Positions 3,734 to 64,000 of a stretch of 64,000 nt of DNA are shown here, one piece after another (position 1 is the stretch's first letter; each line of letters opens with the position of its first letter). Under the pieces are notes generated by a model. The model was given only the letters and a program-made list of their open reading frames with translations. It did no database searches and was not told the DNA's origin. The DNA lies in IMG/VR virus record IMGVR_UViG_3300030329_006602, positions 12,332 to 76,331 of that record. The stretch is one strand, 5' to 3'. Source of the DNA: a virus. The translations under genes and the position numbers were made by a program.

Positions 3734-3763
3734 ATATTATATATTACACGTAGATTAAGGTTT

Positions 3764-7212: not shown

Positions 7213-8655
7213 CTAATCGGCTCGATGTCCTGGATTATAAGGCCCTATCGGCCTGGGAGTATCGGAAGGAGGCGGTGGAGTGGGGACTTCTTTTATTACT
7301 TCAATTTCCTTGATCACCTCCACCTCCTTAATGACTTCAACGGGAACCTCCACCTTCTTTTCTACCTCTTTAATCACTTCCACTTCCTTAATGACTTCGA
7401 CGGGAACCTCCACCTTCTTTTCCACTTCCTTAATGACTTCCACTTCCTTAATGACTTCGACGGGAACCTCCACCTTCTTTTCCACTTCCTTAATGACTTC
7501 CACTTCCTTAATGACTTCCACTTCCTTAATGACTTCCACGGGAACCTCCACCTCCTTGATAATTTCAACTTCCTTGATTAGGTCTGCCTTTTTTTTAAAC
7601 ATTTTAGCAAGGCTCACATTGGCAGCTATAACCAGAAGAATGGCGAGAGGATCAAAGACTAGCATGATTATTAATATAATTAATCTAACCGCTTGGTCGG
7701 ATTCTAGTTTGGTGCCACCCATATCCTGCACCGCTTCCGCCACATATTTTAGGGGCCCAATTTCGGCTTCCAGCGCCCGTATTTTTTCTCCATATTTTAG
7801 TTTTTCTTTTTGGAGTTCTTCTATATTGTCCATGGATAGGCGGATTTTATTATTAGCTTCATCTATTTGAGTATGTATCTCCTTGAGGTTCACACTGCTT
7901 TCGCTATGTCCCGCTTCCACGGAGTTTCGTATGGCAGCTATCTGCGTAGAGGTTTCCTTTCGGAATGTTTCTATGTTCGAGTTGTATGCCTTTAGGGTTG
8001 TTGTTATTTCTTGTCGCTCCTCAGCCTGTTGGCCTTTTAACTCCTCTAATTTCTTTTTCTTATTGGAGAACAAACCACCCCCTTGCTCCTCTAAGAGGGC
8101 GACGGCAGCGTCGAGCTCTTTACGTCGGTCGGTAAGTTTATCTATGCGCCCTTGCTCTATTGCAATATTTTTATCTAGACTTTCTAGTAGTTGAGCGACT
8201 CTTTTTTCTCCTCTGTCTGCGTCGATATCGCTCTGGCCAGAGTTGTATTGCAAGCGCTTTTCTGCCCCCGAGATATATTCCTCTTGCCTCTTTATGAGTT
8301 CGTTTTCTTTATTTATTTTTGTTTCAAGGGTGGCAATAAGGGTTTCTTCGTGGATGGCTTGAGATTGGTGTTCAATGTGGGACTTACTTAGGAATCCAAA
8401 GATTCCCATACTGGTTATACCCATAAGCACAATAACCGCAAAGGAGAGGTATGATTTAATTAATAAACTTGCCCGCTTCCAGTTTCTATGTAGCCAGACT
8501 GCTGCAATGATTTTGCCTATTTCAAGCACTATCCCCATTATTACTACGGAAATAAATGACCCAGGGAAAATCGTGGCCAAACCTAATATACTAAAATACG
8601 CCGCAACACATGAAATGCTCAGCGCCGAGACTAAAGTTGTTATTGCAAATACCAT
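7213..8655 (-). CDS. Membrane protein with long coiled coil and VEVIKE repeat tail
   Basis: Three N-terminal TMs, GIFGFLSKSH, coiled coil, EIGPLKY..FDPLAI TM, then repeats. Confidence 0.8.
   Translation of the reverse strand: MVFAITTLVSALSISCVAAYFSILGLATIFPGSFISVVIMGIVLEIGKIIAAVWLHRNWKRASLLIKSYLSFAVIVLMGITSMGIFGFLSKSHIEHQSQAIHEETLIATLETKINKENELIKRQEEYISGAEKRLQYNSGQSDIDADRGEKRVAQLLESLDKNIAIEQGRIDKLTDRRKELDAAVALLEEQGGGLFSNKKKKLEELKGQQAEERQEITTTLKAYNSNIETFRKETSTQIAAIRNSVEAGHSESSVNLKEIHTQIDEANNKIRLSMDNIEELQKEKLKYGEKIRALEAEIGPLKYVAEAVQDMGGTKLESDQAVRLIILIIMLVFDPLAILLVIAANVSLAKMFKKKADLIKEVEIIKEVEVPVEVIKEVEVIKEVEVIKEVEKKVEVPVEVIKEVEVIKEVEKKVEVPVEVIKEVEVIKEVEKKVEVPVEVIKEVEVIKEIEVIKEVPTPPPPSDTPRPIGPYNPGHRAD
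7295..7575 (-). repeat. Coding tandem repeat (18-bp EVIKEV units nested in 60-bp units)
   Basis: Lines starting 7321, 7381 and 7441 are nearly identical. Confidence 0.9.
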
Positions 8656-8673
8656 AACAGGTATTACACTATA

Positions 8674-9202: not shown

Positions 9203-9528
9203 TATTCTATTTGTTTGAGGTATTCTCTCCTGAAGGTTTTGATGTTTTCTAGGAAGAAGGTTAATAAATAAGTTGTAGGAACGGGAGGATTGATTCCTGC
9301 TTCGGACTTCTCTTCGATGGTGGTTTTGCTGGCCACATTGACTGGAAACTCATCCTTTATCACTTGTGGAATGGCGACAGCGTCGGCCAATGCTACGGAA
9401 TTTCCGTTTTCATCCGCATATAAAAATCTCTTTAATGAAGTGGGTGGCTGATTGAGGCTCGCCACAGCAGCTGTTGCTCCAACGGGGGAGGTGGACGCTT
9501 TTTTTTCATTAGATTTTAATAGAGACAT
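9202..9528 (-). CDS. Hypothetical protein
   Basis: Stop/start coupling on both sides. Confidence 0.65.
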   Translation of the reverse strand: MSLLKSNEKKASTSPVGATAAVASLNQPPTSLKRFLYADENGNSVALADAVAIPQVIKDEFPVNVASKTTIEEKSEAGINPPVPTTYLLTFFLENIKTFRREYLKQIE

Positions 9529-9869
9529 TAGTAGTTATGGTTTTCTATTACGGTAAAACGTCCTGCACTTACTCCCGTGAGGTCTACTTTAGCCTGCAGA
9601 AAGTTCCAAGTATCCGCATAAAGCAATCCCTCCGAATTAGTGGTACTATCTATGGTGTAATTGGCAACAGGTAAAAAACGTGCACTATCTCCTTCCTGAT
9701 TTGAGACTAAAACTCTAAAGTGTCCCGAAGCTGGTAAGCCATCGGTTAAAACTTGATAACTATGCCGTGTATAAATAGAGGTTCCTACCGCCGTACCCGT
9801 ATAATTAACACTAACATTATCAATGCTAGTGACAGTGAGATCGGTACCTAGTAAATGGGGGTCGGACAT
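9528..9869 (-). CDS. Hypothetical beta-rich, possibly virion protein
   Basis: Coupled to the next gene; GTGTA box upstream. Confidence 0.65.
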   Translation of the reverse strand: MSDPHLLGTDLTVTSIDNVSVNYTGTAVGTSIYTRHSYQVLTDGLPASGHFRVLVSNQEGDSARFLPVANYTIDSTTNSEGLLYADTWNFLQAKVDLTGVSAGRFTVIENHNY

Positions 9870-9940: not shown

Positions 9941-11581
9941 TTACAAATCGTATTTACCTCCAAACAGTGGGGTAATATGAGGATCCCCGCAGGCTTGAGT
10001 GGTGTTATTTATTATTTGCCAGTCGCCATCAACGTCGCTACTAAACAGTAAATCTCCCGAGTGACCGCTATTTCCAAAATCTAGTCGCGATCCCGTACCC
10101 CATCCGTCTGGAGTTTCGGCGATATAAGTATTATCGGCGTTTGCTGTGCCACTAATAGTGCCTCCGTGAGGACACATGCACTGTCCCATGGTCCACAAAG
10201 TAGAAGCCACGGGATCTCCATAGCCCCACATGAGTCTAACGGGATTGCTAGCATTGGGATAATCCGCCGCGGTCACATTATCCCTGTTGTTGGTTGCGTC
10301 TTCGCCTAATCGAAAAAATGACACCATGCATTTATTTTCTGAAACGTAAGTGTTTTTCCAGTCTGAGTCTCTGCGGCCTATGCTTCCGCTAAATTGAACC
10401 CAGCCACCCCCTGGGCCATTTAAACCTCCAGTGGTAAAGACGAGGCCTACTTGATCGGATGGGGTTCCTGCTGCGCCCGCATCATCAGCATCAGCGTTTA
10501 CGGTATAAGGGTCAAGGCTTAATACCATTGCTCCTGTTTCTTCTAGGTGAGTCATTTGAGCGCCGTTCTTCCATAGTCCATTCGACGGACCAGCGGAAAA
10601 CCCTGTTTTTGCTGCAATTCCTGCTGCTGTAGTCTCACCAGGCGGTAATCCTGGAGGGCCTAGATATCCCCCTCCATCACGGGGAGATCTCGCAAAAGTC
10701 GTTCCCTTATAACCTCCCCCGTTGCCCATCATTATTGCCAGATTTCCGTAATACATATTGCGACTAGTACCGTTTGATAGCGCAACTGAAGCTCCATAAG
10801 TTCGGACCATTCCCCCTGAGGGGGTAGTGTATCTGAAAGTGAGCCGCCTCCCTGGTTGCCAGGTATTTCCATTACCGACACCGCTAGTGTGATAGGTATC
10901 CACACCCCCAAACTGGTTAGGAATACGCACGTAGGAATCTCCTTTAAGTTTATAAGTAAAACTGTAGTCAGAAAAAGTTGGAGAAGCAACGGGTTCTGTC
11001 CAGGATCCAGCTTGAGCGTCCCAGGGATAATTGCTATCGAGCGCCGTGCGGCCTGCTTTGTTTGAGTAATTACCTAGTTGCGCGGAAAACATCCAATATC
11101 TTCCTCCGAATCCGCCTTCGCCCCCATTCCATAAATATTTATCTAGACTGAAGTGATTGTATCTCCAGTAGGGCCGCCCATTGAATAGACCTTCCTGTAC
11201 ATATGTACCATTCCATGCAGAACCCAATCCCCCAACAGTAACGGTGCGACGAAAGCCTTCTCCTGAGGGTTTAATGCCTGCTGAAAATTTTCCATGGGAG
11301 AAAAGGGGTACGTTGTATTCTTCACTTCGTGGTAAGTCCCACGAGTTGGGGTTGTTCCCTGCGTTGTAGGGAGTTATGCAGGGAAACTCAAGCTGCCAAC
11401 TGGGAGAACCATAACCCGCGCCTGTGGGAACATCGCTGGTCGTGGGTGACTGGGTTACTGAATCAGGGAGTCCTAAGAGGCCACTTATCTGAAAGTAGCT
11501 TATCTCCTGGTCTGGTGGCAAAAGATTGGCAAGCATCCCGCTTGAGGGAGTTGCAATAATGTCTATTTTTGTGGTGGCCAT
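9941..11581 (-). CDS. Gly/Ser/Thr-rich virion-type protein ending in a GDPH tail
   Basis: Composition; C-terminus ..QACGDPHITPLFGGKYDL*; GTGTA box 9 nt upstream. Confidence 0.7.
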   Translation of the reverse strand: MATTKIDIIATPSSGMLANLLPPDQEISYFQISGLLGLPDSVTQSPTTSDVPTGAGYGSPSWQLEFPCITPYNAGNNPNSWDLPRSEEYNVPLFSHGKFSAGIKPSGEGFRRTVTVGGLGSAWNGTYVQEGLFNGRPYWRYNHFSLDKYLWNGGEGGFGGRYWMFSAQLGNYSNKAGRTALDSNYPWDAQAGSWTEPVASPTFSDYSFTYKLKGDSYVRIPNQFGGVDTYHTSGVGNGNTWQPGRRLTFRYTTPSGGMVRTYGASVALSNGTSRNMYYGNLAIMMGNGGGYKGTTFARSPRDGGGYLGPPGLPPGETTAAGIAAKTGFSAGPSNGLWKNGAQMTHLEETGAMVLSLDPYTVNADADDAGAAGTPSDQVGLVFTTGGLNGPGGGWVQFSGSIGRRDSDWKNTYVSENKCMVSFFRLGEDATNNRDNVTAADYPNASNPVRLMWGYGDPVASTLWTMGQCMCPHGGTISGTANADNTYIAETPDGWGTGSRLDFGNSGHSGDLLFSSDVDGDWQIINNTTQACGDPHITPLFGGKYDL

Positions 11582-11618
11582 ATGGTATATTACACCACAC
11601 TTTACCTGCTGTGAAAGC

Positions 11619-12359
11619 TTACCAGGTTAATGGTTTTGGAGCGGCATCTGGTTTTCTAGGCTCCGATCCCCTGGTCTGAGGATCACTGTTTAACCACTTT
11701 TCATGGGCCGCTATGGTGGCCTCCCATTGCCTGGCCAGGATTTTATTAGCGTAATCTATCTCATCCTGACCTTTTTGCAGAGGGAGTATAGTGGAAAGCT
11801 TAGGTATTTCCTTTGCGCATAATTCGGATACAAGAGCACCACGCGAGGTTGCAGGGGTCACGAGTTTGAGGTTGTCATCCAACTGAATGTTCACCCCTCT
11901 GTTTTGGGTGGTTAGTTTTAGTGTCGCTATGTCGGGTATTGTAATTTCTATTCGCCTATTGAGAACGGGGCTATTTGCTGCAGTGGTGTGGTGGTAGAAA
12001 ATGGAAAAACCCTTTATCCTATGATGCCCTTCCCTGAATTTAATATTTCTCAGAGGCCTAATAATAGTTCCATCCTTTAGGTCTATCTTTAGTTTTTTGC
12101 CTTGATGATTTACGAGAACAAATCGTGCGTAGCTAAGGCCTTTTTTTACGTCGGGATTATATTTTACTAGTTTTTTAAGTAGGTGGGGAAATCGAAATTG
12201 TCCACTTCGCCATGGCTGCCATTCCTCCAGTGCGTCATATTCGCAATACGAGTTTATCACTAGCCTATTATCTTTTTGCATATTATCGAACATGCAGAAG
12301 ATCTTGGGCTCCTTGGAGGGGGCTAGTAATAAGAGGATTAGGTCTTTCATTAATTTCAT
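11619..12359 (-). CDS. Hypothetical; candidate remainder of a GDPH/VWD-like domain
   Basis: P..KIFCMFDN..RLVIN..SYARFVLVN..IDL..GALV; own GTGTA box. Confidence 0.6.
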   Translation of the reverse strand: MKLMKDLILLLLAPSKEPKIFCMFDNMQKDNRLVINSYCEYDALEEWQPWRSGQFRFPHLLKKLVKYNPDVKKGLSYARFVLVNHQGKKLKIDLKDGTIIRPLRNIKFREGHHRIKGFSIFYHHTTAANSPVLNRRIEITIPDIATLKLTTQNRGVNIQLDDNLKLVTPATSRGALVSELCAKEIPKLSTILPLQKGQDEIDYANKILARQWEATIAAHEKWLNSDPQTRGSEPRKPDAAPKPLTW

Positions 12360-12375
12360 TGAATATAATTACACT

Positions 12376-12915
12376 TCATGCGAATGTATAGTTATAGGTT
12401 TCTGTATCCTCCTTATATTTCTGCTGCACCCGTTTTTCGAGGGACGGGGTATAGTAATACTGGTAGGGTTCACGAGGACCCGTACACCTATCTCTTACCA
12501 AGGCGTCTATGGGGTAGTTAATTTTTTGTGATATAAGGCTCAGGTCCTCCGTCCGATTTTCAAACCTCCCCACGAAGTCCATGGCTCCATAATTTAAATA
12601 GTCTTTAAACGTTACTCCTTGTTCATGTGGACACGGGGTATAGTGGTCTAAAAAGAATTCTAAAGAATGGCCCGACAGGGCGTTGATCTTTTCATAAATT
12701 GGCTGATGCCATAAAGAAATAACCCTGTCCCACGGATTTCTCACAAAGGTAAACTTAAAATAATTATCCCAGATCTCTTGGCCTACTTTAAGGTAAATGC
12801 TTTTCGCACACAAATGTTTGGTAGGTTCGTCGGCAAAATTGAAGCTTCTTTCTAGAGCTGTTCCTCCTGTCCTAGGTATATGAATAAAAATACACTTGTG
12901 TTCGTGGCTGATCAT
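12376..12915 (-). CDS. Sulfotransferase (Sulfotransfer_2 family)
   Basis: FIHIPRTGGT; FTFVRNPWDRVIS; DFVGRFE. Confidence 0.88.
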   Translation of the reverse strand: MISHEHKCIFIHIPRTGGTALERSFNFADEPTKHLCAKSIYLKVGQEIWDNYFKFTFVRNPWDRVISLWHQPIYEKINALSGHSLEFFLDHYTPCPHEQGVTFKDYLNYGAMDFVGRFENRTEDLSLISQKINYPIDALVRDRCTGPREPYQYYYTPSLEKRVQQKYKEDTETYNYTFA

Positions 12916-12928
12916 TATCTAGTAACAC

Positions 12929-13783
12929 CTAAGAGATATGAGGCTGAGAAAGACCAGCCTTTGAGATTTCTACATGCGCCCGTCTTTTTCCGTAACCATA
13001 TCCGCGATTATTCATACCCATGGAGCATTGGGTTTCTGTAAATCCTGCGTCTTCTAACCATTTATTTAAACAGGGTATAGAAGGAGTGTAACCATGAGCG
13101 TTACCTCTTCGTGCGCACGGAAACCAATCGCCTTTAACGGGACCAGAATCAAAAGCCGTAGTCTCTACAAAAATCTCACCGCCATCTTTTAATGAATTAA
13201 ATAGTCGCCTGAGCCCCACTGTCGGGTCTGAGAGGTGATAAACTACACCTGGACAATAAACTATGTCATACTTTTTATCGCTTTCAAACTCATAAAGACT
13301 TTGACTTTTACAAATGACATTTTTCTGTTGATAAATTTCATTCACTAGTACGTTTGCTGTGGATGCATATTTTTGAACCTCCTCTAGCGCTAAAACGTGA
13401 TCTGCCCCTAGAATTTTAAGCATTAAGGTGGTTCCTCCTGTCCAGCATCCAACATCAAGCACATCTTTGTCTTGAAAGTGAGTATTAGGCAAATTATATT
13501 TAACCATAAACTGTGCCATTGAATTTATATGCCTGTCGGCCATTTGTCCTGTAACCTTGAGGTTATTATTGAATATGTGATTATGTCCCCATACGAATTT
13601 TACCGATTGCTTTCTCTGATTTTCAGAAGTGTTAAACGTTTCATTGGCCACGCTTACTCGCCCAATCTGAGACAACAACTCTCTCGCCAGTTCTAATTGT
13701 TTTTCAGTGGTGATCCTGGAAAGCTCTTCATACATCTTAGATAGCTCCGCCTCTTTAATTGTTACGTGTTCTTTATATTTCAT
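12929..13783 (-). CDS. Class I SAM-dependent methyltransferase (CmoB/DUF1698-like)
   Basis: VLDVGCWTG; YDIV..GVVYHL.DP; LKDGG. Confidence 0.8.
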   Translation of the reverse strand: MKYKEHVTIKEAELSKMYEELSRITTEKQLELARELLSQIGRVSVANETFNTSENQRKQSVKFVWGHNHIFNNNLKVTGQMADRHINSMAQFMVKYNLPNTHFQDKDVLDVGCWTGGTTLMLKILGADHVLALEEVQKYASTANVLVNEIYQQKNVICKSQSLYEFESDKKYDIVYCPGVVYHLSDPTVGLRRLFNSLKDGGEIFVETTAFDSGPVKGDWFPCARRGNAHGYTPSIPCLNKWLEDAGFTETQCSMGMNNRGYGYGKRRAHVEISKAGLSQPHIS

Positions 13784-13796
13784 TGTTTTGTGTTTT

Positions 13797-14594
13797 TTAT
13801 CTAAAATTTCTCCAACCATGAGACTCGTGGAAGTACTTAAAATCCAGTTTCATAATTTTTTCTTTTGGGCAAAACATTCTTAGGGCATTGGCCATTATTA
13901 CATGATCTCCCCACCTGTGCTGTTCAATTCCAGCTAAAGAATAAATATAACTCAAATAAGCTGTTACGTCGGGGCGCCGCCAGAATTTTAAATCCATAAA
14001 GGCAAAGTTAGTATAATAATGGAGGCAGCTGATATCGCTCTCGGGGTCGCAGAGAATAGAGACTTTTCCATCTCTTATGTATTGTTTTATTGCTTGTGGA
14101 AGAGTGGCTAGCGTGGGCTCGTGGGTATCTACCTTGCTTCTAATGTATCCGTAGGTATAGCCGCCTTGAATGAATTTATCTACATTTAAGGGGGAGTGGA
14201 GAGTGGAGTCTGCGTCAAGTCTGATGCAGTAGTCGTAGTTTTTTAAGTAGTGGAACATTTCCATTGCGCTAAATAAAATCATTCCTTTGTATCCCAAAAT
14301 TTTCTGCCTGGGATGCAAGGTCGAAATGTCTATTGTTTTATGCTGGCGTAAATGGTTTTCCAAAAGACGTTGCGCGGGGTTCTCCCAAACGTTAACAAAC
14401 TGAGTATCTGTAATTTTTTTTAGATCGCTTTTTAGTTTATCGGAGAGCGCTATATCTTCAAAGATGATATTATCAACCTCTACGTCGGGAGAATATTTAA
14501 GGTATTTTTTAATCAATTTATTCCTGTCGAGCAAAAGATGTTCGTGACGTTTATGGCACAGGCATGTCACTGCGATTTTTTTAGGGCTATTCAT
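13797..14594 (-). CDS. GT15 (Kre2/Mnt1-like) mannosyltransferase
   Basis: GY..M; YDY.IRLD.DS; YYTNF..DL.FWR; G...RWGD. Confidence 0.7.
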   Translation of the reverse strand: MNSPKKIAVTCLCHKRHEHLLLDRNKLIKKYLKYSPDVEVDNIIFEDIALSDKLKSDLKKITDTQFVNVWENPAQRLLENHLRQHKTIDISTLHPRQKILGYKGMILFSAMEMFHYLKNYDYCIRLDADSTLHSPLNVDKFIQGGYTYGYIRSKVDTHEPTLATLPQAIKQYIRDGKVSILCDPESDISCLHYYTNFAFMDLKFWRRPDVTAYLSYIYSLAGIEQHRWGDHVIMANALRMFCPKEKIMKLDFKYFHESHGWRNFR

Positions 14595-15489
14595 TAATGA
14601 ATTCATTTCTAATGAGTTTAATTTGTTCGGAAAAACCTCCTGTGTCCGCAATTAAATGCTCTGCGTTACATAAATAACAGATTTGATAATCTATCCTATG
14701 ATAACCTTGAAGGCGAGCATGGTCAAGTATTTTTATTTTAAGGGAAGGAAACTCCTCTATGACGGAGGAAAATAGTTGTCTGTAGAGTTTTAAGTTTGCC
14801 TCAAGTTTTTCGTCGCTGTAATTAAACTGGCCCGACCAAGGGTGGTCTCCAAAATGCATTGCCGTTACAAAAGTAATAGAATTAATATTTGCGGGATCGC
14901 CAAGTGACATGGATCCCCTCTTTAAACATTCATTGGCATAATTATTAGGAACTAGAGGATCTGGCGGAACTGGCTTGGGGTATTTGGCTACAGGAGGAGA
15001 GTTTATCTTTTTTCGAATTAAATCTATTAAGGTACCATTTTCCTGATTTTGGGGAAGGAGATGGAGATCGAATTTCCCCTCAAGCGCCGACCGTTCTTCA
15101 GGTCCCAGTACTAGTACGTCTCCCCCTCTTAAATTAATGCATAGCTCTGAGGGGGAGGGGAGGGCATACTGACTACTTTGTTTTTTGACTATAGCTGCAA
15201 GTAGCTTGTAATCTCGCTCCTTAGAGTGATCGATAAATTTCCCCGTGAATTCCTCAAATTGGTTGCAAGTTTTTGTTGAGGCAAGAGGAATCTTTTTAAA
15301 TTCATCTGTCGAAATTTCATTAAGGTAATCTCTGAGTATAGACCCCTTGAATTCTTTGTTATGTAAAATATGGACGCGCGAGTTTTCTGAGCGCTCCAAG
15401 CCGCGCCTGTCAATAATGTCTCCCACTCTATAATGCTGATTGGACTTCAGGATAGGGATTTGTTGTATGAGCTTCTCTAGATTTGGCAT
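14587..15489 (-). CDS. Hypothetical glycan-associated protein (GT-B/fucosyltransferase-like)
   Basis: CINLRGGD and LIADTGGFS resemble GT11/GT23 C-domain motifs. Confidence 0.45.
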   Translation of the reverse strand: MPNLEKLIQQIPILKSNQHYRVGDIIDRRGLERSENSRVHILHNKEFKGSILRDYLNEISTDEFKKIPLASTKTCNQFEEFTGKFIDHSKERDYKLLAAIVKKQSSQYALPSPSELCINLRGGDVLVLGPEERSALEGKFDLHLLPQNQENGTLIDLIRKKINSPPVAKYPKPVPPDPLVPNNYANECLKRGSMSLGDPANINSITFVTAMHFGDHPWSGQFNYSDEKLEANLKLYRQLFSSVIEEFPSLKIKILDHARLQGYHRIDYQICYLCNAEHLIADTGGFSEQIKLIRNEFINE

Positions 15490-16481
15490 ATTTTTTTTAA
15501 TTGTTTTATGTCCAGGTTTATGCTGTAATCGGCACAGCAATCAGTGGCTATCCAATGATAGTCTAATTTCATAGTTTTTCCAATGCCTTCAAAGTTATGA
15601 TCTTCTCGGCTTTTGGGACACGCCTCGTAGACTCTTGGTTTTTTTTCACTAAAAATTAGATTCGCTAATAGGGAGCCGTGTGCTCCGATGATTATAGAGG
15701 CATTTCTAAACTGTCGAACATGTTCCGCCAGCCCTTCTGTGCCATTTAGAATTGTAAATCCCTTATTCTTTAAGAGTGGAATTACCTCGTCTTCGTTTTT
15801 AACTCTGCGTGAAGTGGTGCGTTGGAGATATAATTTTGTTGAAGAAGGGTAGGTTTTGCAGAGCGGGTAATACTTGCTTCGTAAATAATCTAGCCCTACC
15901 AGCGTCCTTTGCGAGGGATATGCCGTGGGCGATGGATAATAAAGCGTTGGGACTCGATAGACGGTATCACAAGCAGTCCTTCCTGGTAAATTTAAGCTAA
16001 GCGTCCTATCTCGGGGGTAACCTAACAATTCTAAATGTAGATTCAGATTGGTGACATGCGCAGAGCGCGGGGGCATGATTAAGATTTTATCAGGAATAGA
16101 GAGTCCTTCTATCTTTTGAAGGTCCTGGAAGACATCAAAGTTATGTCCGTAGACATAAATATTAAAATAGTGATGCGCATAGATATAGTTTTTTTTCTCT
16201 GGCAGTTCTTTAATTGTATAGTCGGCGAGGTTTATATTTTTTTTAATATCTTGCGACTCTAGAGTGTTATTAGGTCGAGCTCCTTCATTGTGAAGGTTGT
16301 CCCAAAAATTATAGGTAAAATTTGCATGGGGGTGTAGCTCTCCGTTTTCATCATATATTGCTCCTCCCCCACCCAGGTAGACGTTTCTTAATTTGAGCAC
16401 GTACTGCGGCCACTGTTTCTTATATAGGTGGGGAGGGAGGCTTGCGAAGGTGGTATTCGTTGGAGTATTTATAGGAATCAT
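15477..16481 (-). CDS. GT61/DUF563 glycosyltransferase
   Basis: YGH; LYLQR..RRVKNEDEV; F.NASIIIGAHGS.LANLIF. Confidence 0.8.
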   Translation of the reverse strand: MIPINTPTNTTFASLPPHLYKKQWPQYVLKLRNVYLGGGGAIYDENGELHPHANFTYNFWDNLHNEGARPNNTLESQDIKKNINLADYTIKELPEKKNYIYAHHYFNIYVYGHNFDVFQDLQKIEGLSIPDKILIMPPRSAHVTNLNLHLELLGYPRDRTLSLNLPGRTACDTVYRVPTLYYPSPTAYPSQRTLVGLDYLRSKYYPLCKTYPSSTKLYLQRTTSRRVKNEDEVIPLLKNKGFTILNGTEGLAEHVRQFRNASIIIGAHGSLLANLIFSEKKPRVYEACPKSREDHNFEGIGKTMKLDYHWIATDCCADYSINLDIKQLKKICQI

Positions 16482-58811: not shown

Positions 58812-61800
58812 ATGGCAGTAGGAAAAACTATAAATTTAAATTTCCAACATGCATGTTATTGTAATGTTGCGTCTAACTATGGTTTTGTTCAGGTGGGCTC
58901 AGAGCCTGCTGGAGGTAGGGAGCCCGAATGGTCTATAGGACTGGGCGCTCTGGCGCTATCTCCCTACTATTCCATAGGAAGCCCTTATGATGGACCTAAC
59001 TTTGCTGCCCCTACCCTCAAACTACTAACCTTACGAACGTCAACCTTGGCGGGTTATGAGGTCGGCGAAATTGCCGACAAAATGGCAGAGGATGAAAATG
59101 TCTTAGCTGAAAATTGCGGCTTAAGCAACAACGCCCGAAGACACGGGAAATATGCCCCATTTTTAGTTCCCCTAGAACGAGGAGGGGAGGGAAAGTGGCT
59201 AACGGACTCTGACGGAGAGGGAACTAATTGGTCTATAACTAACGTGGGGGGGATGATGGTAGACTTCAATACCGCCGACCTTTACACCCAACCCCAGGGA
59301 TCTTATTTTGCGGGTTACGAAATTTTTGGAAGAGTAGAGCATGACCTAGGGCCATCCCCGTGTTCATCTTGCGGTCCACTTGATGGAATACAATTACTAG
59401 AGGGTCCATGGAACGCTAACCTCCAAACTCCCCCCCGTATTCTCGGAAAAGGGTGGGCTGACATAGCTCAAGATAACCCAAAGGTTTATGGACAATCCGA
59501 AATATATTGGAACTGGCCGAATTTAACCAGTCCCAAGGGGAACACTGCAGGCACAGTGACGATAGGAACCCTGGAAAGTGAAGAGGAGAGTTACTCATGG
59601 ACAGAAAACCTCATACGCCCCCTTCCTGGAGCGCCCATAAAATTTCAAACCATTCCGTTCTGTTACGAAAGCTGTGAGCGCGCCTACTCACCCGAACCAT
59701 CATCCTATCTTTCGGCAAAAGAAATTCCCAATAAGCCCCTTTATAAAAACGGCTACTTTCATTCCTTAGTAAGCGACCCTGTTTTTTATAGGTATAGAGA
59801 GGGGTCGGCTGGGGCCAGCTATGACGACAGCAACAAAGATTCCCAACAGGAATGGCTACCCCATCACAACACCAATATAGTGTTAAGGGCTGAAGATCCC
59901 AGAAAAAACGATAGTTGCGTGGCACCTTATCCAGGCTTAGCCGTAGGGTCAAAAAAGCTGGTTTGTTCGGGGGCGGGCGGGGATTACGTAGGAGATTGGC
60001 GCGCCAATTTAGCAAACGAGAGCGGGGTGGCAGAATATAGAGTTACATATGGCTTTGATGATGAGGGAAATTTTGGACCTTTATGTAGTGAAAAGGGGGG
60101 TGGAGTCGGTTGCGTCGTTCCAGACCCTTGTCCTGACTGCAATAAGTTTATGCCGCGAGTGGGGTACGGGGCTTCCTATACAGACGTAGTTAGCTATCAA
60201 AACTGCTGTTGGGAAACCACTGACTGGGCCCAAGTTAACGGGGGAACCGTGGGAGCATGGAACAAGGAGGGAAAGTGGGTACCTGTAGACTGCGATACTC
60301 TCCCCTGCGCATCTACAGCCACAAAGATAGGCGATATTCAACATTTACCCCCAGGAGAAGCGTTTTATTGTGACGCCGCCGTGTACGAAGGCAGCCCCTG
60401 TCCAAGCACGGACAATTTAAAACCCCTGTGGAAATTAATTCCCAATTGCACATACATTCCAGATAAAACTCAGTACGACATCGGCCAAGTCACTTTCGGT
60501 GAAGGCCTCACTGTTTCAGTAGGCGAGCCTATGAGAGGAAAAAGTTATCTCGGCGATTGGGACAAGAAGACAGAGTATAGCGCGGGGAATATAGTTACCT
60601 ATAAGCCATCTGACCGAAGCGACGACGAAGATCCTTTATACTATAAGTCACGAAAAAATGGCAACAAGGACAATGAGCCAAAACCGAGAGACGAATATTA
60701 TACTTATCATACAGAAGAAACCTTAGCGGATAGTGATGGCTCGGAGCTAGAAACTCAACTAGTCAAACAGGACTACGACGAATGGTGGGAGTTGGCCTGC
60801 GAGAAAATCTATACCACCATGGAAGTTTCCGCTCCCTGTACTTCCACAACCTCCACCATCTCAGTGTCAGGAGGATACTTTGGCTGTGACCCAAATATTA
60901 CCGAACTCGAAGAAGAAGAAAGTCTTAAGTCGGGAGACGTCAGGAAATGGAAAGGGCAAGTCTATAAAGCTCTATCCAGTTTCAGTGCGTATCCCTCCTA
61001 CCTCCCTGGTGTGGGAGGAGATTGGGAGGCCTATACTCCTAATTTCTGCGCCACCTCCAAGATTAATCTTGGTTCGGGATTATATTTTGACTACGGAACA
61101 ACCCCTGGAAGTTGCAATTACCCAAATAATCCCTGCGACGAAGGCCCATCAGATGATAGCTGTTGTTATGGTGACTGCTCAGAGACCAGCACGATAACTC
61201 TCCGCTCCCACCAAATGGGCATTAAAGGGTACGATTGCGAGGGTAATAGCGTAGCCTGCCATGTCCCTGATTGCATAGAATTCAAAATAAGCGACTTTGC
61301 CGTTAGAGAAATTCCCGTTACTGGTGCCGAATGCAAGACAACCATGATTTGTTCGGCTGGAGGCTTCTCTCTTTCTGGAACTACTGGAAAATGCCAAGAT
61401 GCTTCGGGAGCGGTGGGAGTAAGTTTTAGTCAAGTTAGCGATCTGCGACTGGGAGAGGGTCTTTATATCGAAGGATATGATTCGGACCAGTATCCCGCAT
61501 GGACCCCTGAATTAGGCACCTCTGATAGCCTTCGCGTAGGCTCTAGAGTGAGGTATGATGGAAAATGCTGGGAAGCAATTGCGTCAAGCGTAGATGACGA
61601 GGATTACTTCAATACAGGGCAATATGGCGGCTCAGGATGGTCCTCTATAGCTTGCCCCGATTGCTGCTCGGGCGGCGGCTACTTAACTATTGGCGCCGAA
61701 GTAATGGGTATTTCAGTTAGCGGTTATCATGTCAGCGGATCGGGCTGTGGTACCTCTGGAGCGACCCCAACTAATTATGTCAATATCAGAAATTTTCGCT

Positions 61801-64000
61801 TGGGTGGCGGCCTTTTCATTGATAATACTGCTTCCCTGAGCGGGTCTGATCCTTGCGATCCCACAGGTTACGTTACCCTCACGGCCGCAGGGACTTCCAG
61901 CTATGCTTCAGGAGTAGATTGTAGATATCCTGAAAGCCTTTCTTCGGTGGAGGGAAAAACGACTGGAACGATATATAATACAGGCGATTTTGGCATATTC
62001 TTTGACGACAATTGCCTCACCCACGTTAAGACTAAAGGAATTACCATAACAGGGAGCCTTACTCCTGATTGTAGTGGAAGCAGCGCTTATGGGCGCACCA
62101 TCTCCAGTATTAAGGAACTACGCCTAGGGAATGGACTTTATATTGAAAGCACCTCTAAAAGCGTGCCCGAAGAAGCTGGGGGTTGGTGTATGGATGATTA
62201 TGTTCAAATCGCCACGTCGCCATCCCGCGTAACCATCTCGGGAACGGACTGCATTGGGGAGGCCCAAAATACAGAGGCAACGGGAATTAACTTTAATACT
62301 TCTGATTTCTGTATTAGTGCCGATGATGACTGCGAGGCCACTATTAGCGCCAAACCCCAATTTATTAGTGTTGTAGGACCCACTGGGGACTGCTGCGATA
62401 CCAACTCCGTCTATCCGACTTGTGTACCTGGGTCAACTTACGATATAGGGGACAAAGTGACCGCTTCTGACGGTAAGTGCTATGAGGCAAACACGTGGAC
62501 AGAAGCCTGTCCTGATGAATACGCTCCCGATTGGACTGAAATTTCCTGTCCAGACAACCCCACCCAGTCCCTTGACGGCATTAAGCAATTAATATTAGGT
62601 AGGGGGCTAAAATTAGGAAACTATAATAGCGCTAGTACCGAATGTTGCACGGGAACGGGGGGATACGCCACCCTGGAGAGTTGTGTGCCTCTAATTTCTG
62701 GAGTAAATTGTCTAGGAAGCAGTATAGACTGTACCCCCTTCGAGTGCCTTTCCTTTAAAGAAGGGGACTTCTGTATTGAAACGGGGACTGATTGCCAGTT
62801 TTCAGTAGGAGTAAAAGGTTTTACTTTAAGCGGGGCCACAGGCACAGGTTGTTGCGAAAGTAACATTAACGGGGTAAGCATTCCAGGAGTAAAGGACTGG
62901 AGACTTGGCAACGGACTGTATCTCTCCAACTATACTACAGGTGCCTGCTGTTCAGGTAACTATGCAACCATCAATGCGCGGCAGCAAATTAATATATCAG
63001 GTGCCGACTGCGGTGGCACGGAACAGGATTCCTGTATCACTGGGCTAAATTTCAACACTGGAGATTTTTGCGTCGATATAAACGATGAATGCGACGGGAC
63101 TATTCGTACCAAAGGCTGGGCTATTAGCGGACCAACAGGAATCCCATGCACAGGGACATCTAGCGAGGGAAGTGTAGAGATCGAAGGGGTCAAGGACTTA
63201 CGTCTGGGCGACGGCCTTTATATTAGCGAATATAGCTCTTCCCCGTGCTGTGAGGGAAATTATGCTACGATAAATTCTTCCGCCTCCAAGATAACAGGAA
63301 TGAACTGCTCGGGGATTGGAGTCAGCGCCACAGGCGCTACTCTTAAGTTCGACCCCTCTTCCTTTATTACCTCTCTAGATGCCGATTGCGTCGCCACCAT
63401 AACCAATAAGGGAGCCTTGGACATTTCAGGTAATTCGGGCGACTCCCCCCTCAGTGCCTCTAATATTAAGGAAATTCGCTTTGGCTCAGGAATAGATATT
63501 GCAGACACAGGACTTTTGAGTGATGGCTGCAGCTCCTATGTAACCATTACTTCCTCTGGTTCAACGGGAGCGGGTGGTACTGGATGCTCGAAGTCCGTAT
63601 CGGAATATTGGGCTGGTGGCCAATATTGGAGCCCTTCAGATTGCGACGGTACCCTCCACATATCAGGCTGTAGCGGAATATCTACCTCTATTGATACCAA
63701 TGGAGTTCTTTCCGTTTGCTATACAGGTTCAGGAAATAGTGGTTGTACGGGAGCAATTACCACTATCAGAGGGGGAGACTCCACCTTATGGAGTGCTTCT
63801 GGATGTAATGCAACCCTCAGCGTTACGGGCTGTAGCGGTATATCTACGACCATAGACGAGAGTGGAGTTCTTTCTATTTGCTATACAGGAACGGGAGCGG
63901 GTGGTACTGGATGCTCGAAGTCCGTATCGGAATATTGGGCTGGTGGCCAATATTGGAGCCCTTCAGATTGCGATGGTACCCTCCACATATCAGGCTGTAG
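58812..64000 (+). CDS. Giant Cys-rich repetitive virion/adhesin-like protein, >1,729 aa (partial; absent from ORF track)
   Basis: Open from ATG 58812 in every segment translated and in the same frame at window end; CBM5/12-like modules; LRLG.GLYI repeats. Confidence 0.8.
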   Translation, partial: MAVGKTINLNFQHACYCNVASNYGFVQVGSEPAGGREPEWSIGLGALALSPYYSIGSPYDGPNFAAPTLKLLTLRTSTLAGYEVGEIADKMAEDENVLAENCGLSNNARRHGKYAPFLVPLERGGEGKWLTDSDGEGTNWSITNVGGMMVDFNTADLYTQPQGSYFAGYEIFGRVEHDLGPSPCSSCGPLDGIQLLEGPWNANLQTPPRILGKGWADIAQDNPKVYGQSEIYWNWPNLTSPKGNTAGTVTIGTLESEEESYSWTENLIRPLPGAPIKFQTIPFCYESCERAYSPEPSSYLSAKEIPNKPLYKNGYFHSLVSDPVFYRYREGSAGASYDDSNKDSQQEWLPHHNTNIVLRAEDPRKNDSCVAPYPGLAVGSKKLVCSGAGGDYVGDWRANLANESGVAEYRVTYGFDDEGNFGPLCSEKGGGVGCVVPDPCPDCNKFMPRVGYGASYTDVVSYQNCCWETTDWAQVNGGTVGAWNKEGKWVPVDCDTLPCASTATKIGDIQHLPPGEAFYCDAAVYEGSPCPSTDNLKPLWKLIPNCTYIPDKTQYDIGQVTFGEGLTVSVGEPMRGKSYLGDWDKKTEYSAGNIVTYKPSDRSDDEDPLYYKSRKNGNKDNEPKPRDEYYTYHTEETLADSDGSELETQLVKQDYDEWWELACEKIYTTMEVSAPCTSTTSTISVSGGYFGCDPNITELEEEESLKSGDVRKWKGQVYKALSSFSAYPSYLPGVGGDWEAYTPNFCATSKINLGSGLYFDYGTTPGSCNYPNNPCDEGPSDDSCCYGDCSETSTITLRSHQMGIKGYDCEGNSVACHVPDCIEFKISDFAVREIPVTGAECKTTMICSAGGFSLSGTTGKCQDASGAVGVSFSQVSDLRLGEGLYIEGYDSDQYPAWTPELGTSDSLRVGSRVRYDGKCWEAIASSVDDEDYFNTGQYGGSGWSSIACPDCCSGGGYLTIGAEVMGISVSGYHVSGSGCGTSGATPTNYVNIRNFRLGGGLFIDNTASLSGSDPCDPTGYVTLTAAGTSSYASGVDCRYPESLSSVEGKTTGTIYNTGDFGIFFDDNCLTHVKTKGITITGSLTPDCSGSSAYGRTISSIKELRLGNGLYIESTSKSVPEEAGGWCMDDYVQIATSPSRVTISGTDCIGEAQNTEATGINFNTSDFCISADDDCEATISAKPQFISVVGPTGDCCDTNSVYPTCVPGSTYDIGDKVTASDGKCYEANTWTEACPDEYAPDWTEISCPDNPTQSLDGIKQLILGRGLKLGNYNSASTECCTGTGGYATLESCVPLISGVNCLGSSIDCTPFECLSFKEGDFCIETGTDCQFSVGVKGFTLSGATGTGCCESNINGVSIPGVKDWRLGNGLYLSNYTTGACCSGNYATINARQQINISGADCGGTEQDSCITGLNFNTGDFCVDINDECDGTIRTKGWAISGPTGIPCTGTSSEGSVEIEGVKDLRLGDGLYISEYSSSPCCEGNYATINSSASKITGMNCSGIGVSATGATLKFDPSSFITSLDADCVATITNKGALDISGNSGDSPLSASNIKEIRFGSGIDIADTGLLSDGCSSYVTITSSGSTGAGGTGCSKSVSEYWAGGQYWSPSDCDGTLHISGCSGISTSIDTNGVLSVCYTGSGNSGCTGAITTIRGGDSTLWSASGCNATLSVTGCSGISTTIDESGVLSICYTGTGAGGTGCSKSVSEYWAGGQYWSPSDCDGTLHISGC
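63563..64000 (+). repeat. Near-identical in-frame direct repeat (63563-63673 vs 63890-64000), 327-bp offset
   Basis: 111 nt with a single synonymous difference (GAC/GAT). Confidence 0.9.

Follow-up and report, generated by a model that had tools for sequence, protein, structure and literature searches.

Self-cleavage at the Asp-Pro bond of a Gly-Asp-Pro-His (GDPH) motif has been described, as far as we found, only in cis, inside a complete VWD or MIIA domain. In VWD domains (PF00094; FCGBP, MUC2, MUC5AC, RGM and SUSD2), the motif sits between the first two strands of a β-sandwich and cleavage requires the surrounding fold; in the D10 domain of FCGBP, the mutations D-to-A, D-to-N and H-to-N abolish cleavage (PMC10880436). 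The bacterial MIIA/DUF1521 domain (PF07481), an Asp-Pro self-cleavage module of the prokaryotic world known from the type III effectors NopE1/NopE2 and from Vibrio coralliilyticus VIC_001052, cleaves at GDPH upon Ca2+ binding and is disordered until triggered (PMC6506597). In the inter-alpha-inhibitor heavy chains (ITIH), cleavage at DPH leaves a C-terminal Asp that is ester-linked to a sulfated glycan (PMC4661386). Here we describe a phage locus in which the motif stands at the very end of a protein. The locus lies in a 64-kb stretch of DNA (the window; positions 12,332 to 76,331 of IMG/VR record IMGVR_UViG_3300030329_006602, a viral record of 76 kb with a CheckV completeness estimate of ~53%) and consists of gene A, which encodes a protein of 546 amino acids (aa) with a C-terminal GDPH tag, and its neighbor gene B, which encodes a protein of 246 aa. 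We propose that A and B are a lineage-specific two-gene module of uncultured marine phages in which the tail of A is read in trans, a reading to which we assign a probability of about 0.4. The features on which this proposal is built are as follows.

9941..11581, minus strand: gene A, a Gly-rich orphan protein of 546 aa, defined by its open reading frame (ORF) and by the homologues P0010 and P0011.
9941..9991, minus strand: the C-terminal tag CGDPHITPLFGGKYDL plus stop codon, defined by the invariant CGDPHITPLFG, by synonymous codon differences and by a match to the start of VWD.
11619..12359, minus strand: gene B, an orphan neighbor of 246 aa, defined by its ORF and by its conserved adjacency to A.

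The C-terminal end of A reads ...TTQACGDPHITPLFGGKYDL*. As an earlier note made from the sequence alone had reported, A ends shortly after GDPH, with 9941-9988 spanning the motif to the stop; the putative scissile Asp-Pro bond is D533-P534. A search limited to residues 330-546 of A, because low-complexity sequence dominates the full-length protein as a query, identified the two homologues P0010 (561 aa, 40% identical to A overall) and P0011 (439 aa, 36% identical), and the start of a further homologue lies at 2426-2629 of L002, a related locus on a TARA scaffold. CGDPHITPLFG is unchanged in A, P0010 and P0011, with G532, D533, P534 and H535 invariant in all three, and each protein stops 5-6 residues later after an ending of the form ..xxY[DE]L, which carries an extra E in P0011; from the His to the C-terminus there are 11 residues in A and 11-12 across A and its two homologues. 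No other 15-column window of the A alignment is as conserved as the tail, in which 12 of 15 columns are invariant compared to 104 of 621 overall. Because the window and L003 (part of L003/L004, a 27.5-kb relative from IMG/VR) use different, synonymous codons at 4 of the 11 invariant tail positions, selection has acted on the tail peptide and not on the DNA; this purifying selection maintains exactly those residues that are required for Asp-Pro cleavage. The earlier note had argued that a simple frameshift does not explain the arrangement, and the invariance across homologues and the synonymous codons agree: the tail is a real, selected tag, neither a frameshift nor a truncation. These sequence comparisons firmly indicate that the VWD-type tag at the C-terminus of A is genuine and under strong selection.

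It is most unlikely that the motif arose by chance and that its neighbor is incidental, with no functional link between the two. The look-elsewhere effect (64 kb were scanned for many motifs) and the small size of the families speak for such a reading, but the tail is invariant across homologues that are only 36-40% identical, with synonymous changes in its codons, and the adjacency of A and B survives a change of orientation. The synonymous differences also argue against the homologues being recent recombinants that share tail DNA. There is one GDPH tag per genome fragment, both in the 76-kb record and in the 27.5-kb relative, and the DNA pattern for DPHITPLFG was found in IMG/VR only in L003 and in none of 185,579 prokaryote genomes. 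Three matches to CGDPHIT elsewhere in IMG/VR were rejected as chance because all are in non-coding frames. Other contigs from the sequencing runs are near-identical strains that hold no informative variants, and a variant reading LCGDPHIFPL is found at one low-depth, loose contig end in a marine run, where divergence begins exactly inside the tail and most codons are changed.

The tail was compared with three viral ORFs that were fetched using a DNA pattern for GDPHYxTFDG and confirmed as VWD by Pfam (E 1e-13 to 1e-15; the Pfam model begins at the Cys that precedes GDPH).

L008 3135-7970, minus strand: giant- or large-virus VWD ORF (Pfam VWD).
L009 5257-9729, plus strand: giant- or large-virus VWD ORF (Pfam VWD).
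L010 1859-7633, plus strand: giant- or large-virus VWD ORF (Pfam VWD).

These ORFs, from two GVMAG giant-virus bins and one 260-kb contig, are 1491-1925 aa long and have an intact GDPH ~150-180 residues from their N-termini. Their VWD domains read C..TGDPHYTTFDGAYWHVY where the phage tail reads CGDPHITPLFGGKYDL; common to both are the Cys, GDPH, a Gly at the sixth position past the His and, three residues beyond that Gly, an aromatic residue. The tail alone aligns with the viral VWD domains with an E of 0.002 over 10 columns (hhalign), and it matches a VWD-type GDPH domain over the first ~15 positions. This likeness extends to the cellular VWD proteins named above, which share with the tail the Cys, GDPH and the pattern hydrophobic-x-T/P-hydrophobic-x-G-x-x-aromatic; the Asp and His on which cleavage depends are among the invariant residues of the tail. 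The earlier note had relied on a consensus for intact viral GDP[HY] domains; this consensus could not be verified and is absent from the three true viral VWD domains.

Despite this likeness, A differs from the known domains in what follows the motif. VWD proteins carry the motif inside a sandwich of ~150 residues formed by the same chain, in the connection from strand 1 to strand 2, whereas A stops 11 residues past the His and has no PF00094 match, either for the whole protein or for its last 60 aa, at E<=10; it likewise has no match in Pfam as a whole, PHROG or NCBIfam, and a circularly permuted VWD in the region upstream of the tail was looked for with hhalign and not found. MIIA domains share with A not only GDPH but also a paucity of cysteines and synthesis in the cytoplasm; however, MIIA is a single domain of ~170 residues with GDPH inside it, and PF07481 is silent in the whole phage record at the same threshold. 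Because all three A-family proteins stop 5-6 residues past the invariant block, domain chemistry of the known cis type is impossible in A. Since the ~140-residue β-sandwich that normally follows the motif and drives cleavage is lacking, the tail is most likely a tag read in trans.

The prime candidate for the reader of this tag is B, because it is next to A in every case and invariably closes a glycan operon. Three loci, the window, L002 and L003/L004, show the surroundings of A and B. The window has sulfotransferase, B, A in that order on one strand; in L002 the order is GT15-like, sulfotransferase, B and the start of the A homologue. In L003/L004, a sulfotransferase, GT90, a methyltransferase, a NodZ-like gene, an epimerase and B follow one another on one strand, and the A homologue is convergent with B, with a 3-nt gap between the gene ends. 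A-B adjacency is tandem in the window and L002 and convergent in L003/L004, and in each of the three the same-strand glycan genes end with B. In addition, P0007 of the B family and P0010 of the A family are each traced to a single ENA contig; its length is 198,567 bp in both cases, and the two proteins almost certainly lie on one contig. Two proposals of the earlier note, that B is the companion of A and that a glycan island lies beside the pair, are thus supported by adjacency in three loci and two orientations and by a glycan operon that adjoins the pair in every one. We conclude firmly that A, B and the glycan operon form a conserved neighborhood in a rare lineage of marine phages. A and B are probably functionally coupled.

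B begins MKLMKDLILLLLAPSKEPKIFCMFDNMQKDNRLVINSYCEYD (MKLMKDLILLLLAPSKEPKIFCMFDNMQKDNRLVIN...), and the motifs that the earlier note had quoted for it are present, SYARF at residues 76-80 and RGALV at 173-177. In a low-confidence model, a β-rich N-terminal part of ~185 residues is followed by a long helix at ~198-223, a Pro/Lys-rich linker and a conserved terminal Trp. B has no match in Pfam, PHROG or NCBIfam, and a B profile run against PDB sequences returned a clathrin light-chain helix alone (E 2.2). The family comprises about 13 clusters among 5.8 billion proteins, all of them stand-alone, 133-261 aa long and found only in phages; the most distant relatives are 29-30% identical to B. Three blocks, CM[FY]DNM..[NR]RL, RGAL and LPL.K..EI, are invariant and could form a pocket for the invariant peptide, and the stretch before CMFDN varies in sequence and length. 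Full-length B proteins all end ..(K/P)(V/L)x-W, past a variable Pro/Lys-rich linker of 25-45 residues (alignment A1; window 11619-11690), a conserved C-terminus that is B's own terminal tag.

These features suggest a mechanism. The last 16 residues of A are a strongly selected copy of the N-terminal segment of a VWD/MIIA-type domain, comprising the Cys, GDPH and a strand-turn-strand element. B would bind this tail hairpin, and binding would permit or promote cleavage at D533|P534, which would free the 13-mer PHITPLFGGKYDL and give A a C-terminal Asp. The step at which the invariant Asp-Pro bond is cleaved, needing a fold supplied in trans, is a tentative part of this scheme; we consider it plausible, though less likely than not.

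Several observations weigh against B as the reader of the tail. At E<=10, neither PF00094 nor PF07481 has a match in six frames of the whole record, and neither matches B or its homologues. The B family aligned with the viral VWD alignment by hhalign gives a probability of 0.1%, with alignments that are shallow (Neff, the effective number of sequences, 2.4 and 1.7). A concatenate of the tail and B scores 21.2 against VWD, the tail alone scores 18.4 and 120 shuffles of the B columns score 21.4 +/- 1.0; because the shuffled columns score alike, B adds nothing measurable to the tail's VWD score. A HMMER search of 1.84 billion representatives with the B profile found only stand-alone proteins of 133-251 aa and no fused homologue, and a search of the A family over 300-956 aa found no longer form. 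The B family has no conserved nucleophile set of the kind that marks an enzyme. Finally, because the synteny rests on three or four genomes of one lineage, the adjacency may be partly due to shared descent, and in L002 and L003 B has no counterpart of the GTGTA box that precedes it in the window.

The same data bear on the strictest form of the idea, which is close to what the earlier note proposed: B would be a VWD sandwich minus its first strands, the tail of A would complement it, and the completed fold would cleave itself at GD|PH, perhaps with transfer of the Asp to a nucleophile. The tail does correspond to the opening ~15 positions of the VWD model, with the Cys among them, and the adjacency of A and B is conserved. 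The β-rich N-terminal ~180 residues of B, in the low-confidence model, have roughly the length that the rest of the domain would need, and B starts almost at once with a hydrophobic strand and then C-x16-C, where viral VWD domains have C-x15-C at a matching distance from GDPH. The local alignment of the concatenate, whose score does not exceed that of the shuffles, runs 40 residues into B and pairs B C22 and C39 with two VWD cysteines. However, the hhalign probability, the silence of Pfam, the column shuffles and the absence of fused homologues all speak against such a split; neither the sequence nor the length of the part of B that precedes CMFDN is well conserved, whereas the tail is invariant, and the simple A-then-B order of a split gene is never seen. 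Thus the proposal of the earlier note that B is the remainder of a VWD domain gains no support from Pfam, hhalign, the concatenate or the fused-homologue searches, and the single-chain homologues that a split domain predicts appear neither in the HMMER search nor in the DNA-pattern scans. Three giant repeat proteins considered as fused B relatives (P0014, P0015 and P0017) were rejected; their scores are sums over 10-12 repeats of 2-9 bits each, with no GDPH before the repeats.

AlphaFold2 models of B and A reach a predicted local distance difference test (pLDDT) score of 46.5 and 27.4, respectively, and both are unusable; the low-confidence B model has no Foldseek match below E 0.2, and the ESM Atlas holds no usable look-alike for A or B. 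Complex predictions of B with the last 60 residues of A scored 0.59, 0.00 and 0.02, with a median under the mark, and so speak neither for nor against binding. Bacterial GDPH domains are very divergent from animal VWD. Because of this divergence and the shallow alignments, the negative results on the likeness of B to VWD are weak, but they do remove the argument from sequence patterns on which the earlier note had drawn. We consider it unlikely that the structure of B supplies what is missing from a VWD-like fold, and the strict split domain is unlikely to the same degree.

The main rival to a tail read in trans is that the tail is an uncleaved docking β-hairpin that anchors A to a phage or host component, for example in virion attachment or through an assembly chaperone, with GDPH in a purely structural role; B would then be a chaperone or adaptor, or else the glycan operon would simply end in a gene unrelated to A. 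In phage structural proteins, a conserved terminus is commonly a site of attachment. B carries no enzyme signature, and its conserved extreme C-terminus (..V.W) is typical of a docking adaptor. Moreover, the fold that GDPH cleavage requires (PMC10880436) is absent from A. On the other hand, one would not expect a plain hairpin to copy the VWD cleavage motif and to preserve precisely its Cys and its four residues without variation, and the residues past the motif, where xxY[DE]L varies and P0011 has its extra E, are less constrained than GDPH itself. We regard a docking hairpin as possible, though not as the reading to be expected.

The position of the pair beside glycan genes raises another explanation. 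In the window, the part of the glycan operon nearest to B, its last gene, is made up as follows.

12376-12915, minus strand: sulfotransferase (Pfam).
12929-13819, minus strand: methyltransferase (Pfam).
13797-14651, minus strand: GT15-like (Pfam).
14587-15540, minus strand: unknown ORF (ORF map).
15477-16481, minus strand: GT61 (Pfam).
12376..16481, minus strand: the whole of this proximal end of the glycan operon, closed by B (Pfam hits and ORF map).

Same-strand glycan genes, including sulfotransferases and methyltransferases, continue for ~35 kb (12376-47887, minus strand). Several of the families are more typical of eukaryotic protein glycosylation, namely GT61 and GT15-like in the window and GT90 and NodZ-like in L004. 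The relative G001 has a shorter and differently composed glycan island that ends in the same B gene.

Given this setting, the tag could be a glycan-attachment signal, with or without the help of B, by which A comes to carry the island's sulfated and methylated glycan, either through ordinary glycosylation near the tail or through ITIH-like esterification of a new C-terminal Asp. The pair adjoins glycan genes in 3 of 3 loci, among them sulfotransferases and GT90, GT61, GT15-like and NodZ-like genes of kinds known from protein glycosylation. ITIH heavy chains offer a precedent: they are esterified through their C-terminal Asp to chondroitin sulfate (PMC4661386), and ITIH3/5/6 have GDPH in a VWD-like sandwich (PMC10880436). 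A, for its part, adjoins sulfotransferase and glycosyltransferase genes; in contrast to ITIH, it has no full C-terminal propeptide domain after the site, which the ITIH reaction uses, and it has no homology to ITIH outside the motif. The support for a glycan signal is purely contextual, and the island may target the host envelope instead; we consider this explanation improbable. An extension of the proposed mechanism would combine both ideas, with B docking the tail and completing a VWD/MIIA-like catalytic environment, D533|P534 breaking via an anhydride and the Asp becoming esterified to the operon's sulfated, methylated glycan; by analogy with ITIH this can be envisaged, but we consider it very unlikely.

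A and B are each preceded by a GTGTAAT box, one of a set of five on the minus strand.

11589..11595, minus strand: GTGTAAT box, 14 nt upstream of the ATG of A (sequence).
12368..12374, minus strand: GTGTAAT box, 15 nt upstream of the ATG of B, in the 16-nt gap after the sulfotransferase gene (sequence).
8663-8669, minus strand: further GTGTAAT box (sequence).
3743-3749, minus strand: further GTGTAAT box (sequence).
9994 bases before the window start in the same record, minus strand: further GTGTAAT box (sequence).

That A and B each have a GTGTA box was already stated in the earlier note, and GTGTAAT is found at -14 for A and -15 for B. In all, GTGTAAT stands 14-18 nt before the ATG of five minus-strand genes: A, B, a 480-aa membrane protein, a 95-aa ORF and a 266-aa ORF. 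A related GGTGTAT lies upstream of the A homologues in L002 and L003. GTGTAAT looks like a phage promoter or leader element; with the box so near the start codon, transcripts would be nearly leaderless.

Other genes accompany the pair. Directly downstream of A lies a 113-aa orphan (9528-9869, minus strand) whose homologue in L003 (4477-4842, plus strand) marks it as a conserved gene of the neighborhood; the MSDPH with which this ORF starts was considered as a second DPH and dismissed as chance because the L003 homologue has no DPH. The 480-aa protein (7213-8655, minus strand) has N-terminal transmembrane helices, a long coiled coil, a further membrane span, EVIKEVEV(P/K) tandem repeats and a Pro-rich end. 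It has no family match, and its homologue in L003 (4994-6217, plus strand), also near the A/B pair, is without the repeat array. A, which the earlier note presumed to be a virion protein, sits between genes of replication and nucleotide metabolism and the glycan island; genes of the window include PhoH, a UvsX-like recombinase, a DnaB-like helicase and a primase, and no recognizable capsid or tail gene is found within it. The largest gene of the window is an open-ended ORF of >1729 aa without a PHROG match (58812-63998, plus strand).

Window DNA is contained in marine metagenomes, and no RNA data set is listed among the sequencing runs that contain it. Among 50,697 GenBank phages there is no match to A or B (tblastn) or to the region (blastn). 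Scans of IMG/VR and prokaryote genomes with the B profile and motifs found only L003, and a metagenome scan with B found only L002.

Two kinds of described system resemble this arrangement in idea. In split inteins and in the donor-strand complementation of chaperone-usher pili, a short segment completes the fold of another chain, and A and B, as separate genes conserved together, would fit that pattern; however, split inteins have clear contiguous homologues, whereas a fused form of the A tail and B was not found. Haft's exosortase work (PEP-CTERM/exosortase; LPXTG/sortase) reportedly describes a similar arrangement, in which a protein ends in a short conserved signal and its companion is encoded in a glycan locus. 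In the sortase and exosortase tags, in contrast to A, a transmembrane helix and a basic tail follow the motif; A ends 11 residues on, without a hydrophobic span. Those systems also have several substrates per genome, compared to the one tagged protein per fragment here, and B, unlike a sortase or exosortase partner, is neither a membrane protein nor a recognizable transpeptidase. A literature search found no report of a phage GDPH or Asp-Pro tag or of a split GDPH domain; the use of a GDPH motif as a terminal tag with a dedicated neighbor gene is new, and the pair was previously undescribed.

With the motif and its first strands held invariant at the end of A and the rest of the domain absent, either a second protein completes the reaction, or the GDPH motif has a second, unknown use. 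In the former case the pair would be a naturally split self-cleaving module, of interest to protein engineering in the way that split inteins and SpyTag-type tools are. If B does complete a VWD-like environment, this would be the first naturally split GDPH autoprocessing domain; if the Asp is then esterified to the glycan, A would become part of a coat in which protein and glycan are covalently joined, and the system would be a two-component viral counterpart of the ITIH-bikunin protein-glycosaminoglycan cross-link. In addition, the constant link to a sulfotransferase-bearing glycan island makes A a possible carrier or target of a phage-made glycan, and this link is relevant to the decoration of particles or hosts by marine phages.

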